Below are positions 46,480 to 54,656 of a stretch of 64,000 nt of DNA, piece by piece. The translations under genes were made by a program, and so were the position numbers. Where the stretch lies: assembly GCA_003249095.1 (NCBI GenBank), contig QBMS01000003.1, positions 15,875 through 79,874 on the forward strand, given 5' to 3'. A model generated the notes under the pieces. It saw only the letters and a list, made by a program, of their open reading frames with translations, made no database searches and was not told the origin of the DNA. How positions within the stretch are numbered: the stretch's first letter is position 1; the number at the start of each line of letters is the position of its first letter. Source of the stretch: Snowella sp. (lineage in GTDB: Bacteria; Cyanobacteriota; Cyanobacteriia; Cyanobacteriales; Microcystaceae).

Positions 46480-47253
46480 TTACATTTCTGATTCTTCCGT
46501 CGTTGTGCCTCTTAATAAATTTAAAATTGTGTCGGTGTAATGATAAAAGTCAGGTTCACGCTTGATTTTATAGGTGCGATTTTCGGGTAATTCAATGGTT
46601 AATTCCTGTTGAATTGTTCCTGGTCTCGCGCTCAATACATAAATGCGTTGGGACAAAAAAACTGCCTCTTCTACATCATGGGTAATCATCAAAATACTGC
46701 ATTTAATCCGTTGCCAAATTTCAATCAGATATTCCTGCATTCTTTCTTTGGTTTGAACATCTAATGCACCAAAGGGTTCATCCATTAATAACACCTTTGG
46801 ATGACAGGCTAGGGAACGGGCGATCGCGACCCGTTGTTTCATGCCGCCCGAAAGTTCCTTGGGGAAGGAATCGGCAAATTGAGTTAAACCTACAATATCA
46901 AGGTAATAACAGGCGAGTTCCCAGCGTTCTTTTTGGGGTAAGCCCTGAAGTTTTAAGCCAAATTCTACATTTTTTTGCACCGTCATCCAAGGATAAAGAG
47001 TATAACTTTGGAAAACTAAGCCGCGATCGGCTCCAGGCCCTTTTACCTCCGTTCCATCAACAGTAATTTTGCCAGAAGTCGGTGTTTCTAACCCTGCAAT
47101 CATCCGCAAAAGAGTCGATTTTCCTGAACCAGAAGCCCCCACCGCACAGACAAATTCGGAAGTGTCGACGTGCATATTAATATCTTTTAGGACAATAATA
47201 GAACCTCGTTTAGTTGAAAAAGATTTATTGAGATTAGTGATTTCTAAGTGCAT
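46480..47253 (-). CDS. ABC transporter ATP-binding protein (NitT/TauT family), last gene of the riboswitch-led operon
   Basis: Walker A GASGSGKST, signature LSGGMKQR, and Walker B LLMDEPFGALD. The ATG at 47253 is preferred. Confidence 0.9.
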   Translation of the reverse strand: MHLEITNLNKSFSTKRGSIIVLKDINMHVDTSEFVCAVGASGSGKSTLLRMIAGLETPTSGKITVDGTEVKGPGADRGLVFQSYTLYPWMTVQKNVEFGLKLQGLPQKERWELACYYLDIVGLTQFADSFPKELSGGMKQRVAIARSLACHPKVLLMDEPFGALDVQTKERMQEYLIEIWQRIKCSILMITHDVEEAVFLSQRIYVLSARPGTIQQELTIELPENRTYKIKREPDFYHYTDTILNLLRGTTTEESEM

Positions 47254-47349
47254 ATCGTTTCCTGTTTGAATCAAACATTAAAGTATTTTTTTGTGAATAG
47301 GAAATCTATTTTTTATTTCTAAAAGCTTATAAAAAATAAGTGTATTTAT

Positions 47350-48165
47350 TTAACGATTAACTGACCATTTACACGTCCAACGTAGTAACAAACGAAAGCT
47401 TAAATCTAAAGCAAAACCAATTACGCCTAAAACAATTAAACAAGCAAAAATTTCATCGGTTCTAAGGAATTTTTGAGCTAACACAATACGCTTTCCTAAT
47501 CCATTATCGGCGGCTAATAATTCCGCGACGACGACCAAATTCCAAGCGGCGGCCATATTAATCCGAAAAGCATCCAAAATATTGGGAATCACATAGGGCG
47601 TAATAACCTGCAATAAAATTTGTTTACGTAAGCCACCTAATGTATAAGTCACCTCAATTAGTTCCTTGGGAATAAATTTAACGGCATCCATAATCATCAG
47701 AGTATTAAAAAAAATTGTCCCAATGAAAATGAGCATTACTTTTGAGGTTTCGCCAATGCCTAAATAAATCACTAAAAGGGGAATAAAAGCAGGGGCAGGC
47801 ATATAACGAACAACCCCAATAATTGGCTCCGTCAAACTACGAATACTCGGAAAAGCTCCCATTAAAATACCCAAGGGAATCGCAAAAAATCCTCCTAAAA
47901 AAAATCCACCAACAACTCTTAAGAAACTTGTAACTGTATCTTGAATTAAAAAACCTTGTTGCCAAAGATTGACTAATGCCTGAATAACCGCTAAGGGTGA
48001 AGGAAGAAAAACGGATTCAATAGGGGCAAAACTAGATACTAATAGCCAGATTACCAAGGGAATTACAATCGAAAGAGTCATTAAGACCCACTTCAATGAT
48101 TCAGAAATTTCTTCAGAAAGTTGCCAAAAAATAGTCGGTTTCAGAAGTTTAGGAGTCGTCGTCAT
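47350..48165 (-). CDS. ABC transporter permease (NitT/TauT family)
   Basis: 271 aa with about 6 TM segments and an EAA-like loop region, as in binding-protein-dependent permeases. Confidence 0.9.
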   Translation of the reverse strand: MTTTPKLLKPTIFWQLSEEISESLKWVLMTLSIVIPLVIWLLVSSFAPIESVFLPSPLAVIQALVNLWQQGFLIQDTVTSFLRVVGGFFLGGFFAIPLGILMGAFPSIRSLTEPIIGVVRYMPAPAFIPLLVIYLGIGETSKVMLIFIGTIFFNTLMIMDAVKFIPKELIEVTYTLGGLRKQILLQVITPYVIPNILDAFRINMAAAWNLVVVAELLAADNGLGKRIVLAQKFLRTDEIFACLIVLGVIGFALDLSFRLLLRWTCKWSVNR

Positions 48166-48351: not shown

Positions 48352-49386
48352 TTAAGCTTTATCTGGATTGAGTGTTTTAACAAACTGAGAATCTAAAATT
48401 TTCGTTAAATCAGGAACTTTCTTAATAAAACCAACATTTTTCATAAAATCTGCCATTTTTGTCGCCGCATAGGGCATACTTTTCATTGTATTACCAGGAC
48501 TAAAGGCTTCAATATTCTCTGCGATCGTAAAAAATCGAGTCCCTTCTTTATAGAGTTTTAATTCTTCTGGACTAATTCCTGCTCGCTTCGCCATGATTTG
48601 ATCGGATTTTTCAGGATTTTTTTCCATGAAATCCCGAACTTCAAACCAGGTTTTAACTAAGGCTTGAACTTGTTCAGGTTTTTCTTTTATTAATTTTTCA
48701 GTCACTACTAAAAGATCAGGGATAGCTCCAGGAAAATCCTTAGAGCTAGCAATCTCCTTCGATCCTTTTCGTTTTAAAGCTGTTAACCAAAAAGGAGGAA
48801 AGGCTCCTACTCCATCAACTTTTCCCGATGCAAATGCTGCGGCGGCGGCCCCTGTTTCAAGGGGGACAATCTGCACATCTTTGCGAGACATTCCTGCTTT
48901 TTCTAAGACTAAGCTCAGTAAAAAATCATCAACAACTCCTTCTTCAACGGCAATTTTTTTACCTTTTAAATCTTTAACGCTATTAATTTCTTCCGCGACA
49001 ATAATTTTGTCATTACCTGCCGAGTTGTCATTGACTAAAACGGCAACTTCTCCATTAATTGCTTCTCCTGCAAAGGCGATCGTATCGTTTAGGGTTTGAC
49101 TATTTCCGTCTAATTGTCCTGCGGCCAAAGCTTGTAAGGATTCGAGATAACCATCAAACCATTTCATTTGCACATTAATATTATTTTTAGTGAATAAACC
49201 CTCTTCTTCCGCGATCGCCCAGGGCCACCAGCCCGCCCAATTACTATAACCGATGACGATAGGAGGTGTATTGGTTACAGGATTATTGGCAGTGGGAATT
49301 TCTTTAGGAGCCTGATTACAGCTAACCGTTAATAGCAAGGTGCTAAAAAATACCAACAGTAAAGAAAAGAAATTACGTCGTTTCAT
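48352..49386 (-). CDS. ABC transporter periplasmic substrate-binding protein (NMT1/THI5-like)
   Basis: Lipoprotein-like signal (MKRRNFFSLLLVFFSTLLLTVSC) and an NMT1-type binding-protein body. The ATG at 49386 is preferred. Confidence 0.85.
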   Translation of the reverse strand: MKRRNFFSLLLVFFSTLLLTVSCNQAPKEIPTANNPVTNTPPIVIGYSNWAGWWPWAIAEEEGLFTKNNINVQMKWFDGYLESLQALAAGQLDGNSQTLNDTIAFAGEAINGEVAVLVNDNSAGNDKIIVAEEINSVKDLKGKKIAVEEGVVDDFLLSLVLEKAGMSRKDVQIVPLETGAAAAAFASGKVDGVGAFPPFWLTALKRKGSKEIASSKDFPGAIPDLLVVTEKLIKEKPEQVQALVKTWFEVRDFMEKNPEKSDQIMAKRAGISPEELKLYKEGTRFFTIAENIEAFSPGNTMKSMPYAATKMADFMKNVGFIKKVPDLTKILDSQFVKTLNPDKA

Positions 49387-49459
49387 GATTGATATAGTGA
49401 TATATGACAAGACTTAATAAATAGTAAATAACAAATTTTTATTTATAACCGTTACCGAT

Positions 49460-50149
49460 TTAACCGTTCAAACAAACAGGCATCTTAATTTGGCTTTTCA
49501 CCCAGCCAAACCAGTCATTTAAACCTTCCCCTGTTTTAGCAGAAAGGAAAATAATTTTTACACTTGGATTCATGGAGCGAACATTATTTTCTAATTTTTT
49601 TAAATCAATTTCTAAATAGGGAGCGAGATCTAATTTAGTGACTAATAAACAATCCGCTTCTTGAAACATGATCGGGTATTTAAGGGGTTTATCTTCCCCT
49701 TCCGTAATGCTTAATAATGCCACCTTAGCGTGTTCTCCCACTTCAAATTCCGCAGGACACACTAAGTTACCAACATTTTCTACAAATACTAAATCAAATT
49801 GTTTAGGATCATAATTTTCTTTTAATTGATGAATTCCTCCTGCTACCATCCGTGAATCTAAATGACAGGAACGCCCCGTATTAATCGCAATTACAGGAAC
49901 TCCATATTGTCGTAGGTGATCGGCATCTAATTCGGTAGTCATGTCGCCTTCAATTACTGCCATTTTGATTTGATGTTGCAGAGCTTCGAGGGTTTTTTCT
50001 AGTAACACAGTTTTGCCTGCTCCAGGACTACTCATGAGGTTTAAACAAGTAATTCCCCATTCATCAAAATGTTCGCGATTGTGATCGGCTCCTGTTTGAT
50101 TGGCGTGAAGAAGATTCATTTCTAGGGCTGCGTCAAAGGTTTGGTGCAT
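49460..50149 (-). CDS. ghaB: HypB-like Ni-binding GTPase, predicted accessory protein for the adjacent hydrolase
   Basis: G1 motif [10 protein letters not shown] motif [16 protein letters not shown], and TKLD (NKxD-like). The ATG at 50149 lies one nt after the hypA-like stop. The symbol follows my recollection of Synechocystis sll1079. Confidence 0.8.
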
Positions 50150-50150
50150 T

Positions 50151-50507
50151 TTAATTAATAAGGGAATATTCAATGTGATCAATTTTTAATTCTCTGCCTG
50201 AGCGAATATCATCCATCGGCGATCGGCAGATTGGACAGGAGTATTGCAAACCGATTTCAGGTTGATATTCTTTTTGACAAACATGACAATAGGCTATTAA
50301 GGGAATATCTTTAATGACTAATTCCACACCATCTAAAAAAGTATTCTGAGTCTGTACTTCAAAGGCAAACTGCAAACTAACGGGTTCAACGCAGGTAAAT
50401 TTACCCACAATTAAATGAATTTTTTCGATTTTAAGCTTTTCAGGTTGGCTATCATACCAATCTTGAACAGTTATCATCAAAGCCTTTGTCATGTCGGTTT
50501 CGTGCAT
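50151..50507 (-). CDS. ghaA: HypA-like Ni metallochaperone, predicted accessory protein for the adjacent hydrolase
   Basis: N-terminal MHE Ni-binding motif and a zinc site, CHVCQ...CPICRS. 118 aa. The symbol follows my recollection of Synechocystis sll1078. Confidence 0.8.
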
Positions 50508-50524: not shown

Positions 50525-50884
50525 TTAGGAATTACTCTTTGTTTTTTCTAATCGCATTTTTTGAGCGACTTCGGTAGTTAAATCTCCTTTGCTATCAGCT
50601 TTTAAAACACAAATTAAAATGGTTAATTCATCTAAATTACCATCAGTCATCCAATCGACTAAAAATCCTAGATAATCTTGAACACTTTTTTCTGCTTGCC
50701 TCGGATTTTTCCAGACACGCGCCATTGACAAATTGTTCGTAATACCAGCAGAAGATTCATCTGCTTTTTCCTTGTCAAGAGGGGGCAAGGCATTTTCAGC
50801 GGCCGCATAGATGTTGAATTCAGAAACTAGGTTTAAGACATAACCCACCTTTTTATTAATAGGAGTTCCAAATCCTTTCGCCAT
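50525..50884 (-). CDS. hypothetical protein embedded in the hydrolase/Ni-chaperone operon
   Basis: 119-aa ORF with an ATG start, 17 nt upstream of the hypA-like gene and 55 nt downstream of the hydrolase gene. No TM segment and no recognisable family. Confidence 0.55.
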   Translation of the reverse strand: MAKGFGTPINKKVGYVLNLVSEFNIYAAAENALPPLDKEKADESSAGITNNLSMARVWKNPRQAEKSVQDYLGFLVDWMTDGNLDELTILICVLKADSKGDLTTEVAQKMRLEKTKSNS

Positions 50885-50939: not shown

Positions 50940-52118
50940 TTAGAGCCAAGGTTCATCTACGGCCATATTCGCTTCAGAATGAATGTAATAGGGCTTTTCT
51001 TTGCGGGGTAATTGACCCGATAAAACCAAATGGGCGATCGCATCACAAATGACACGAGTTGCCATCAAAGAAGTCATATCACTAATGTCGTAGGGGGGGG
51101 AAACTTCCACGACTTCCATGCCACAAATAGGAGCTTTTTGGATGATTTTTCCTAATAAAGCCAAGGCTTCACGGGGTAATAATCCCCCAGGTTCGGGCCA
51201 ACCTGTACCAGGGACAAAACCTGCATCAATGCAATCAATATCAAAACTAATCCAAACGCAATCTGTTCCATCTAAAGCGCGTTCGAGGGCAAATTCGGCG
51301 GCGGCATCAATACCTTGTTCCACAATATCGGTGACGGTGAGAATGTTTGTTGCTCGTTCCCGACAAACTTTTACGCCTTGACGGGGAACTTGCCAACCGC
51401 CGATGCCTAATTGTACTAGGTTTTTTGCAGGGGCATTTTTCATGTTGGTCGCGTGGAACCAGGGACAGGTGTGCATCCGTTCATCTAGATCTGTTTCTTG
51501 GGTATCTACATGGCGATCGAAGTGAATAATACCGACTTTTTTATCGCCTAAGTGCCGACAAATGCCGCGAACGGTCGGAAAACCGATGGAATGATCGCCC
51601 CCTAAAATAATGGGAAAGGCTCCCGAACTAAACACATGGGCAACGCCTTTCGAGATTTGATCAAAGGATTTTTCATTGTTAGCAGGAATAGTAAAAACAT
51701 CACCCACATCACAGAGAGTAATTTGTTCCCGCAGATCAACCCCCATTTCAAAGTTATAGGGCGTGTACAGAGCTGAAATACGACGGATTCCCTGGGGGCC
51801 AAAACGAGTTCCAGGTCGGTAGGTCGTGCCTGAATCGTGGGGAACGCCCATAATAGCCACATCATACTCTCCGACTTTCCGCACATCCTCTAAATAAGGG
51901 GCTTTCATGAAGGTATTAATGCCCGCATAGTGGGGTAATTCTCCCCTGGAAAAGGTGGGAATGGTGCGATCGCGGATACTATCTGCCGCCTCTAGCCCGT
52001 AGGTTAAGCCTTGGGAAACTTCCTGTTGCCAACCTGTGAGTGGTAACTGACTCTCTTTTTCCAGAGCGCGCTGGGCTTCGGAGGAATCGGGGGGTCGAAA
52101 AGATGGTTGCTCGGACAT
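50940..52118 (-). CDS. gdmH: arginase/agmatinase-fold ureohydrolase, predicted Ni-dependent guanidine hydrolase
   Basis: Ureohydrolase metal motifs GGDHSI, HFDRHVD and SFDIDCID. The ATG at 52118 is preceded by GAGGTGAG. Function is inferred from the guanidine-I riboswitch and the HypA/HypB-like partners. Confidence 0.8.
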   Translation of the reverse strand: MSEQPSFRPPDSSEAQRALEKESQLPLTGWQQEVSQGLTYGLEAADSIRDRTIPTFSRGELPHYAGINTFMKAPYLEDVRKVGEYDVAIMGVPHDSGTTYRPGTRFGPQGIRRISALYTPYNFEMGVDLREQITLCDVGDVFTIPANNEKSFDQISKGVAHVFSSGAFPIILGGDHSIGFPTVRGICRHLGDKKVGIIHFDRHVDTQETDLDERMHTCPWFHATNMKNAPAKNLVQLGIGGWQVPRQGVKVCRERATNILTVTDIVEQGIDAAAEFALERALDGTDCVWISFDIDCIDAGFVPGTGWPEPGGLLPREALALLGKIIQKAPICGMEVVEVSPPYDISDMTSLMATRVICDAIAHLVLSGQLPRKEKPYYIHSEANMAVDEPWL

Positions 52119-52185
52119 AAATCTCACCTCAAAAAACAACTACCCAGGACACTTCAACAAAACTGATTTTTTCAGTTCTCGTTAA

Positions 52186-52310
52186 AGTCTCCCGGGCTTT
52201 TATCCCGCCGTGTAGCTAACTTGGATATTTAAATTGGGTTACAAGTTCAGCCTGCTTCTCTCGGACCTGACACTTAAGATATTTTTCCTTAAATCGGAAC
52301 CCTAGAAACA
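52186..52310 (-). promoter_or_regulatory. guanidine-I riboswitch (ykkC-yxkD motif) aptamer
   Basis: The minus strand reads CTAGGGTTCCG (52305-52295), then GGTCCGAGAG (52267-52258), then ACACGGCGGGATAAAAGCCCGGGAGA (52213-52188). These are the three most conserved blocks of the ykkC consensus, in the right order and spacing, about 70 nt upstream of the hydrolase start. Confidence 0.85.
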
Positions 52311-53123
52311 ACTTTGTTCAAAGTTTAAAAGATTCAAATTCAAAAAACAGTATCAATCGTCACAATCGTAGAATTTTCTTTCATGGTAAGTAGAGAAAAA
52401 AAATTTTCCCATCTCTAATATTTAGAACAGTTTTAATTTTTTTAGATGAGTTCTCGGATCATAAAATTATTTCTAAAAAAAGAAGATTACTACTTTTTTC
52501 GCCATATTCATTATCGTTTACCACAATGATAAGTCCTTTAAATCTCGCTTTCAATCCTAAAATTTTTTAGTGTTTAAATGTTTTTCGCAGTTTCAAACAC
52601 TTAATTATTGTCTGTTTTTGAGGAATGTAGATGTTGATTATTGTAAAAAATCTTTCCACCTAATTCTTACCTAATTCTTAATCAATCAACTTAGTCAATT
52701 ATCATGGAAAGATAAAAGTTTAAATTTTACCAAGCAAATTTTTAGATTTTTTTTAGTTAAAATTCTAATTTTTGGTATTTCTTCAGAAGATAAATATTTA
52801 AGATTCACATTTATTAGCTTTTTTGAATAAGCCTCTAGAAATTGATAGTTCTATATAACAAATTTTACTCTAGCAAGAGGCTGGACCCCCTTTTAAATAC
52901 CTAGCTATAGACGACTTCTCTCTTTTAGGGCTTTTTGAAAATTATTTCTCTATATTTTCTAAAGAGAATGGCGTTAATTGATATTATTATATTTTAAACA
53001 TCCTAAGATCCTTATTTTAATCAAGCTTTATTAAAGACCCATCGTTCCAATTCCTGCTTTTTCTCATGTTTTGCCTTTAATTCAAAAAAATTACTGTTTT
53101 TCCTTACTTTCCCCGTCGAATTC

Positions 53124-54656
53124 ATGCCTGATTCAAATACTTCCTTTGCCAGCTATTATCACGAACAAACCAAGTATCATCCAGAAACGATCGCGTCAAA
53201 AAACAAAGTTTTGGACTGGGGAAGTCAGCCCTCAGTTTTTAAGGAGTATAAAATCGGGACAATCTACGATTTACAGCCGTTTTTGACCGCTTCTTTGACT
53301 GAAGATCCTGATACAAGAGCTTGGGAAAGATTATCTCGCCTTTTAGCCTGTAGCTATGGTCTGACCGCAAAAATTCCCAGCATGGGAAAGCCCATTTATT
53401 TGAGAACGGCTCCCTCGGCTGGGGGACTGTATCCCGCAGAGGTCTATTTGATTTCCAGAGGAACAAAGCTTTTACCCTCTGGTTTGTATAGCTATCAACC
53501 CCTGACCCATTCCTTGATCCATTTTTGGGCTAGTGAAGTTTGGACAAAGTTGAAAGAAGCTTGTTTTAATCATTTAGCCCTGAAAAATACGAGTTTAGTG
53601 CTGGTGACAACGGCAATTTTTAATCGTTCCGCCTGGCGTTACGAAGACCGAGCCTATCGACGAATTTTTCTGGATACGGGTCATCTTTTGGGAAATATTG
53701 AGTTGGCTGGCGCGCTCTATGGATATCATCCCCACTTAATCGGCGGTTTTCGAGATCAGGCGATGAATGATCTGCTTTATCTTGATGCCGATCAAGAAAG
53801 TGTGATGACCGTGATTCCTTTGACCGATTTACAAACGGCTAACTCCGCGATCGTGGAATCTCCCCTCACGGCCTTGCCTTCTCCCATTGGTCGCGATTTT
53901 CCCTCAGTCAGGGCAGGAGAATTACTCAAGGCTTTTCACCACGCAACGGAAATTCAGGAGCCACTATCGAAGGATTTATTGCGATCTCAAGTCACTCATC
54001 AGGGAGCGGAAGATAAATATAATTTTCCCTTTTGTCTAAAAATCTCTACTCAGACATCTCCGATCAATTGGGGAAATAATCTCGCTGAACTAGAAAAAAC
54101 CATTCTCCGTCGCCGCTCAACCAGGGCCTATACGGGAGAATTTTTAACCCTAGATGAATTGAAGGCATTGCTAAGTTTTACCTATCAGTCTCAAGATTAT
54201 GAAACACAAAATCTCGACTCCAGCCCTGATTATTTTGATTTAAGTTTAATTCAAACCTTTATTGCCGTTTCAGGGGTAACGGGTCTGGAAGAAGGCTGTT
54301 ATTATTACGCGCCCCAAGCCCAGGAGTTACGCCAAATTCGGTTTAAAAACTTTCGTTCTGAATTACACTATCTCTGTTTGGGTCAGGATTTAGGACGGGA
54401 TGCGGGGGCTGTGATCTTCCATACGGCGGATCTCCAACAGGCTGTCCAAAAATACGGCGATCGCGCCTACCGATATCTCCATCTAGATGCGGGACACCTG
54501 GGACAACGCCTAAACCTAGCCGCTATGCAATTGGGTTTAGGGGTGAGTGGCATTGGAGGGTTCTTTGACGATCAGGTCAATGAGGTGCTAGGTATTCCCG
54601 AAGATGAAGCGGCACTATATATTACAACCCTTGGCCGTCCACGGTTTTTGTTCTAG
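53124..54656 (+). CDS. SagB/ThcOx-family dehydrogenase (tandem nitroreductase-like domains)
   Basis: 510 aa. Two halves each carry nitroreductase-fold signatures (PSAGGLYP, RAYRRIFLDTGH in the first; RRRSTRAY, RAYRYLHLDAGH in the second). N-terminal YHEQTKY is typical of SagB-type domains. Confidence 0.7.
   Translation: MPDSNTSFASYYHEQTKYHPETIASKNKVLDWGSQPSVFKEYKIGTIYDLQPFLTASLTEDPDTRAWERLSRLLACSYGLTAKIPSMGKPIYLRTAPSAGGLYPAEVYLISRGTKLLPSGLYSYQPLTHSLIHFWASEVWTKLKEACFNHLALKNTSLVLVTTAIFNRSAWRYEDRAYRRIFLDTGHLLGNIELAGALYGYHPHLIGGFRDQAMNDLLYLDADQESVMTVIPLTDLQTANSAIVESPLTALPSPIGRDFPSVRAGELLKAFHHATEIQEPLSKDLLRSQVTHQGAEDKYNFPFCLKISTQTSPINWGNNLAELEKTILRRRSTRAYTGEFLTLDELKALLSFTYQSQDYETQNLDSSPDYFDLSLIQTFIAVSGVTGLEEGCYYYAPQAQELRQIRFKNFRSELHYLCLGQDLGRDAGAVIFHTADLQQAVQKYGDRAYRYLHLDAGHLGQRLNLAAMQLGLGVSGIGGFFDDQVNEVLGIPEDEAALYITTLGRPRFLF

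Follow-up and report, generated by a model that had tools for sequence, protein, structure and literature searches.

The gdmH (sll1077) gene of Synechocystis sp. PCC 6803 carries a guanidine-I riboswitch in its 5′ UTR (Itzenhauser et al., PNAS 2025, PMC12704784). Guanidine is bound by this RNA with a Kd of about 58 µM, a GFP reporter is induced 4–5-fold, and the response is lost in the G16C mutant (PMC12704784). For the Synechocystis cluster, GdmH activity, nickel dependence, binding of guanidine by GimA, regulation by NtcA and riboswitch function have all been shown (PMC12704784; PMC12186494). The role of ghaA has been described, NtcA control of the gdmH promoter has been reported, and gimABC has a promoter of its own, the second NtcA-dependent one (PMC12704784). 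Termination was assumed for the Synechocystis riboswitch by analogy with other guanidine-I riboswitches (PMC12704784). The locus described here, located in a 64-kb stretch of DNA that was analysed as a whole (the window), has a leader of the same Rfam family directly upstream of gdmH and shares the gdmH-ghaA-ghaB-gimABC set with the sll1077–sll1082 cluster. An NtcA-type promoter, predicted in the case of the window, lies upstream in both, the two GdmH proteins are 88% identical with the specificity residues kept, and both riboswitches are expected to be ON switches. The window differs from Synechocystis in an extra 119-aa ORF between gdmH and ghaA and in a host of 39% GC.

Further characterised guanidine-I riboswitches are those of Nitrosomonas europaea, Desulfotomaculum ruminis, Sulfobacillus acidophilus (5T83), Dickeya dadantii (5U3G) and Burkholderia sp. 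TJI49. With the window RNA they share the P1/P1a/P1b-P2-P3 architecture, the CUAGGGUUCCG, GGUCCGAGAG and ACGGCGGGAUAAAAGCCCGGGAGA blocks, the purine pocket bulge and a terminator competing with P3. Their P2 is shorter, and most of them control a guanidine carboxylase or efflux (Gdx), whereas the window riboswitch is placed before a hydrolase pathway with an importer. In the guanidinase operon of Nitrospira inopinata (PMC11410670), a guanidine-I riboswitch precedes a GdmH-clade guanidinase with the Thr/Trp residues, as here, but the operon has an APC permease instead of the ABC importer and is without HypA/HypB-like chaperones. The RNAs of ykkC subtypes 2a and 2b, which sense ppGpp and PRPP, have the overall fold and most conserved nucleotides in common with the window RNA; what sets them apart is that the marker position is a pyrimidine, that their conserved tails form an additional helix, P0, and that their gene context is another; neither this marker nor this context was found at the present locus.

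The window was searched with cmscan against all 4227 Rfam families, and a single match was obtained, to RF00442 (Guanidine-I), at 52316-52187 on the minus strand. The score was 77.2 bits (gathering score 63, E=5.3e-12) and the match spanned model positions 1-107 of 107, i.e. the full model, which is far beyond chance. In a permissive Rfam scan of the leader alone (E<=10), no competing riboswitch family was found. The original prediction had identified a guanidine-I (ykkC) aptamer in the minus-strand leader and proposed the covariance-model score as its check; the identification is borne out by the RF00442 match, the score lying above the gathering threshold, and it also agrees with the subtype-1 marker, with the genes downstream and with conservation among orthologues. 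The 124-nt sequence quoted in that prediction was located exactly at 52310-52187 (-), and its low end, given as 52186, was one base too far. The three invariant core blocks that it named were present as exact matches, CTAGGGTTCCG at 52305-52295, GGTCCGAGAG at 52267-52258 and ACGGCGGGATAAAAGCCCGGGAGA at 52211-52188 (all on the minus strand). Exact matches were likewise obtained for the conserved nucleotides of the pocket and of the tertiary contacts (CUAGGGUUCCG, GGUCCGAGAG and ACGG-GGGA-AAAA-CCCGGGAGA), including the P3 loop with its four adenines; the functions of the conserved nucleotides in guanidine-I RNAs have been described (PMC8457001).

The aptamer (guanidine-I, ykkC subtype 1; 52187..52316, minus strand) was assigned its helices from the Rfam alignment and minimum free energy (MFE) folds, which concur on an architecture of three hairpins (P1/P1a/P1b, P2 and P3). 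P1 is formed by 52310-52305 / 52258-52253, P1a by 52301-52300 / 52264-52263, P1b by 52297-52287 / 52279-52266 and P2 by 52252-52242 / 52223-52214. P3 comprises the pair C52212-G52192 and 52206-52204 / 52196-52194, and closes an AUAAAAG loop. The P2 loop is enlarged by 25 nt relative to the consensus; in the Rfam consensus, 8 nt stand where P2 of the window (52214-52252) has 25.

For comparison, the 80 most similar cyanobacterial gdmH loci (86-98% protein identity) were collected by searching with the downstream enzyme. The closest GdmH relatives were found in Merismopediaceae/Snowella MAGs (97-98% identity), followed by Microcystis. In 65 of the 80 loci, gdmH was preceded by all three aptamer cores at a distance of less than 500 nt, and the Rfam gathering score was passed by seven of eight sampled loci. 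When 48 distinct orthologous leaders were aligned, compensatory double changes were seen at 12 of 23 consensus pairs, in P1, P1b and P2; P1a and P3 were invariant across the alignment and thus uninformative for covariation. Aptamer length among the related leaders ranged from 89 to 240 nt, mostly by insertions in P1b and P2.

The riboswitch is common in this guanidine operon, not universal. When the DNA at each of the 15 loci negative in the pattern search was scanned with Rfam, an RF00442 match was absent from 13 (L010, L019, L021, L035, L041, L046, L047, L061, L062, L067, L068, L071 and L075). At L048 the core blocks were present with a score below the gathering threshold. In a marine cyanobacterial MAG (L070:524-659, minus strand), an aptamer of 82.5 bits lies on the strand opposite to gdmH, beside a divergent gimA homologue; the importer, and not the hydrolase, appears to be the target of the riboswitch in this lineage. 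At some of the loci without riboswitch (e.g. L010 and L019), gdmH follows ghaAB-gimABC and does not come first. Two contigs in the sample were assigned to a 'Sphingobacterium thalpophilum' MAG (L010) and a 'Candidatus Gracilibacteria' MAG (L040); their gdmH genes are 92% and 89% identical, respectively, and stand in cyanobacterial synteny, and the contigs are most likely mis-binned cyanobacterial DNA.

The ligand of the RNA was assessed from the P1 bulge, in which the G and the A of the guanidine pocket are placed (PMC6031431; PMC8457001). The marker adenosine is A46 in S. acidophilus and A55 in Burkholderia, all subtype-2 (ppGpp/PRPP) RNAs reported have a pyrimidine there, and this position alone divides guanidine gene contexts from others (PMC6031431; PMC8457001). 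In the window, the bulge is GAGA at 52259..52262 (-), unpaired in the Rfam alignment; by the most probable residue mapping, the G and the A of the pocket come from it. No pyrimidine occurs among its four bases in the window or in any of the 48 aligned leaders, so the subtype-2 signature is absent under any exact mapping. The subtype-1 marker, the gene context and the orthologous leaders agree in supporting guanidine as the ligand, and the window RNA would be expected to bind it. In roughly a dozen of the related leaders (e.g. L011, L012, L015, L016, L024, L039, L049, L055, L064, L069, L072 and L078), the pocket block is GGUCCAAGAG in place of GGUCCGAGAG, and A has replaced G at the first position of the bulge, beside the marker adenosine; the window has G at this position.

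Downstream of the aptamer, an intrinsic terminator hairpin of about 25 bp (-34.3 kcal/mol) was predicted at 52141..52197 (-), with the U-rich tract GUUGUUUUUU (52131..52140) directly after its stem; U accounts for seven of the first nine bases past the stem. The 5′ arm of the hairpin (GCCCGGGAGAC..., 52197-52187) contains the P3 3′ strand and the 3′ tail of the aptamer, and P3 and the terminator are therefore mutually exclusive. In the unconstrained MFE fold of the leader (-61.7 kcal/mol; z-score -3.67), P1, P1a, P1b and P2 were formed and the terminator took the place of P3; with P3 enforced, the energy was -47.7 kcal/mol, i.e. a cost of 14 kcal/mol. The original prediction had described a weak terminator-like hairpin with a loop of six adenines followed by TTGTTG. 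A small hairpin of this kind is indeed present (AACTGA-AAAAA-TCAGTT at 52177-52161, then TTGTTG at 52160-52155), with five adenines in the loop; as a terminator it is superseded, being merely the apical tip of the strong hairpin of 52197-52141. The terminator stem contains one G-G mismatch and one bulge, and the U-tract is interrupted by a G. A generic promoter and terminator scan left the riboswitch terminator unflagged and returned only two sigma-70-like sites, 200-300 nt upstream; the terminator was probably missed because its stem, long and interrupted and with a U-run broken by a G, exceeds a simple hairpin model.

The arrangement was then compared across 66 aptamer-bearing leaders (the 65 orthologous loci and the window). 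A hairpin overlapping P3 and followed by a U-run was found in every one (66/66; median ΔG -30.6 kcal/mol), with at least five U in the next 9 nt after the hairpin in 62. The partner of the P3 3′ strand is a YCYCCYGGGY-like segment further downstream in all 66 leaders, and the inner-stem sequences of the terminators are unrelated between lineages. The distance from aptamer to start codon varied from 66 to 298 nt among the orthologous leaders. At L031 (L031:7844-8000), about four tandem copies of a unit of about 19 nt (TTTTCACCCTCTGGTGATT) separate the terminator from the gdmH start codon and extend the leader to 158 nt past the aptamer.

Whether the platform acts on transcription or on translation had been left undecided in the original prediction, and control through sequestration of the Shine-Dalgarno sequence was weighed against termination. 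The Shine-Dalgarno sequence GAGGTGAG (52130-52123) does precede the gdmH ATG (52118-52116), as had been claimed, and directly follows the U-tract; in the full-leader MFE fold, the U-tract and Shine-Dalgarno region can pair with the P3 5′ half (52212-52200 / 52139-52125), and a 3-bp hairpin spans the Shine-Dalgarno sequence to the ATG. These pairings of the Shine-Dalgarno region are weak and rich in G-U, and the characterised guanidine-I riboswitches act through a terminator (PMC12704784; PMC11410670). A transcriptional mode is preferred because the strong P3-strand hairpin with its U-run is invariant in the 66 leaders while the distance from aptamer to ATG is not. A translational platform is accordingly considered improbable, with some translational contribution possible, and the question is best answered by a transcriptional ON switch, in which we infer termination to be the regulated step.

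Two further readings, which concern the aptamer itself, were given hardly any weight. That the RNA is a ykkC subtype-2 variant sensing ppGpp, PRPP or a nucleoside diphosphate was entertained since the fold and most conserved nucleotides are common to guanidine-I and subtype 2, and the two have historically been confused (PMC5912903). At the marker position, however, the P1 bulge (GAGA) has a purine where subtype 2 has a pyrimidine, and the 3′ tail, which in subtype 2 forms P0 with the 5′ tail, here belongs to the predicted terminator; moreover, the genes downstream encode a guanidine hydrolase and an importer rather than amino-acid or purine biosynthesis, and the orthologous Synechocystis RNA binds guanidine (PMC12704784). 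A subtype-2 identity, ruled out by the marker position and with no competing family in the permissive scan, was rejected as exceedingly improbable. Similarly remote is the view of the aptamer as a non-functional relic in decay, with NtcA alone controlling the operon. The 13 of 80 related gdmH loci without an RF00442 match indicate that the riboswitch is dispensable in some lineages, and the P2 insertion of 25 nt is a departure from the consensus, but P2 length varies across the functional family, as the range of aptamer lengths indicates, all invariant cores are intact with a score well above the gathering threshold, and aptamer and terminator are kept in the closest relatives, with compensatory changes. 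The intact guanidine-I riboswitch stands as the preferred reading.

NtcA-activated cyanobacterial promoters contain GTA-N8-TAC and, about 22 nt further downstream, a TAN3T -10 element. By pattern search, an NtcA-type activator box of the form GTG-N8-TAC (GTGACGATTGATAC) was found at 52350..52363 (-), with the -10 element TAAACT 22 nt downstream of it (52322..52327, minus strand). The geometry of the box is right and one half-site deviates from the consensus (GTG...TAC versus GTA...TAC); it is a putative NtcA-binding site. From the spacing, a transcription start is predicted near 52315, on the 5′ boundary of the aptamer, which would place the centre of the box at about -41.5. The GT-N10-AC / 22 nt / TAN3T geometry is kept in the eight closest relatives (L001-L008), with GTA-N8-TAC in Microcystis, and was found in 20 of 66 leaders compared with 1.7% of shuffles. 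An NtcA-type promoter at this position would imply dual control of the operon, by nitrogen status and by guanidine. Upstream of gimA, a weak match (GTT-N8-AAC / 24 nt / TACTAT; GTTAAATCGGTAAC) was seen at window positions 49421-49464 (-), across the end of ghaB, in the place that the second NtcA-dependent promoter occupies in Synechocystis, and may be due to chance.

The genes downstream were all located on the minus strand. The first, gdmH (50940..52118), encodes a Ni2+-dependent guanidine hydrolase of the arginase family (Pfam Arginase, 259 bits), the N-terminus of which aligns from residue 1 with Sll1077 and orthologues. Compared with the Synechocystis GdmH structures (Sll1077; PDB 7ESR/7OI1), the product scored 817 bits with 88% identity over 391 aligned positions. 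Thr97 and Trp305, which together are the guanidine-specificity criterion for the GdmH clade (PMC11410670), are conserved in the window protein as T99 and W307. HypA-/HypB-like nickel-delivery genes and an NMT1/SsuA-type ABC importer all lie downstream of gdmH. The HypA-like nickel metallochaperone GhaA is encoded at 50151..50507 (PF01155, 101.7 bits; TIGR00100, 121.9 bits) and the HypB-like nickel GTPase GhaB at 49460..50182 (TIGR00073, 309.9 bits); translation of ghaB probably begins at the ATG at 50149, for a protein of 229 aa, in line with the gene calls at loci L081 and L082. The periplasmic substrate-binding protein of the guanidine ABC importer, GimA, is encoded at 48352..49410 (NMT1_2/NMT1; SsuA_fam, 306.7 bits), with a likely ATG start at 49386 (344 aa), and a search of the PDB for GimA returned only distant SsuA/TauA-type relatives. 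The permease gene gimB (47350..48165; PF00528, 86.8 bits) and the ATPase gene gimC (46480..47274; PF00005, 113.3 bits) are syntenic. Among the 80 related loci, ghaA was syntenic in 73, ghaB in 69, gimA in 55 and gimABC in 49-55, and the operon order, orf119 aside, is common to most of them. The divergent neighbour upstream (window 53124-54656, plus strand) encodes a SagB-type peptide dehydrogenase of 510 aa (TIGR03605, 219.8 bits) that contains two nitroreductase domains; it hints at a nearby maturation locus of the RiPP/thiazole-oxazole type and has no relation to the riboswitch.

The additional ORF between gdmH and ghaA, orf119 (50525..50884, minus strand; 119 aa), had no family match in Pfam, NCBIfam, PHROGs or PADLOC, and only six close homologue clusters were found in a database of 5.8 billion proteins. 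Its hosts are Merismopediaceae/Snowella-like and some Microcystis genomes, and it was present in three of the 80 related loci (L001, L006 and L007; one Merismopediaceae MAG and two Microcystis). Wherever a contig is long enough for both neighbours to be seen, orf119 occupies the slot between gdmH and ghaA (arginase-family/hypA-like). An AlphaFold2 model built from a shallow alignment of seven sequences was of low confidence (pLDDT 59). A lineage-specific, guanidine-induced component of the GdmH system, e.g. a nickel-handling or regulatory accessory, is a speculative and rather doubtful assignment for its product.

Taken together, the leader at 52316-52131 (-) is read, with high confidence, as a complete guanidine-I riboswitch and as the transcriptional ON switch of a guanidine-assimilation operon. 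Family membership, the subtype marker, helix covariation, the exclusive terminator with its conservation, and the identity of the genes were computed directly and form the basis of this reading. Transcription would start near 52315 from the NtcA-type promoter and would probably be favoured under nitrogen limitation. Without guanidine, the P3 3′ strand GCCCGGGAGAC would pair with the downstream segment GUGUCCUGGGU to give the hairpin of about 25 bp. Next comes GUUGUUUUUU, and RNA polymerase would terminate ahead of the Shine-Dalgarno sequence and the ATG. Guanidinium bound at the interface of the P1 bulge and P3 would stabilise P3 and its A-minor docking into P1a; the terminator would then be unable to nucleate, and the operon would be transcribed. 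The genes controlled in this manner would be gdmH, orf119, ghaA and ghaB, and possibly gimABC by read-through. By this scheme the hydrolase, the nickel-loading chaperones and the high-affinity importer would be made only under nitrogen scarcity and in the presence of guanidine.

Both the riboswitch and the operon are already known, and the present locus is an ordinary intact example, the counterpart of the experimentally validated Synechocystis system; its significance beyond correct annotation is little. What is added is small, namely the delimitation of the terminator, comparative support from 66 leaders for the transcriptional mechanism, and an NtcA-type promoter abutting the aptamer. The P3-overlapping terminators in 66 of 66 leaders support the ON-switch mechanism that the Synechocystis study assumed by analogy, a result relevant to groups using such leaders as inducible expression tools. 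For the organism, the locus indicates a cyanobacterium, Merismopediaceae/Snowella-like by its nearest relatives, that can probably import guanidine and exploit it as a nitrogen source, under the control of nitrogen status and of guanidine itself.
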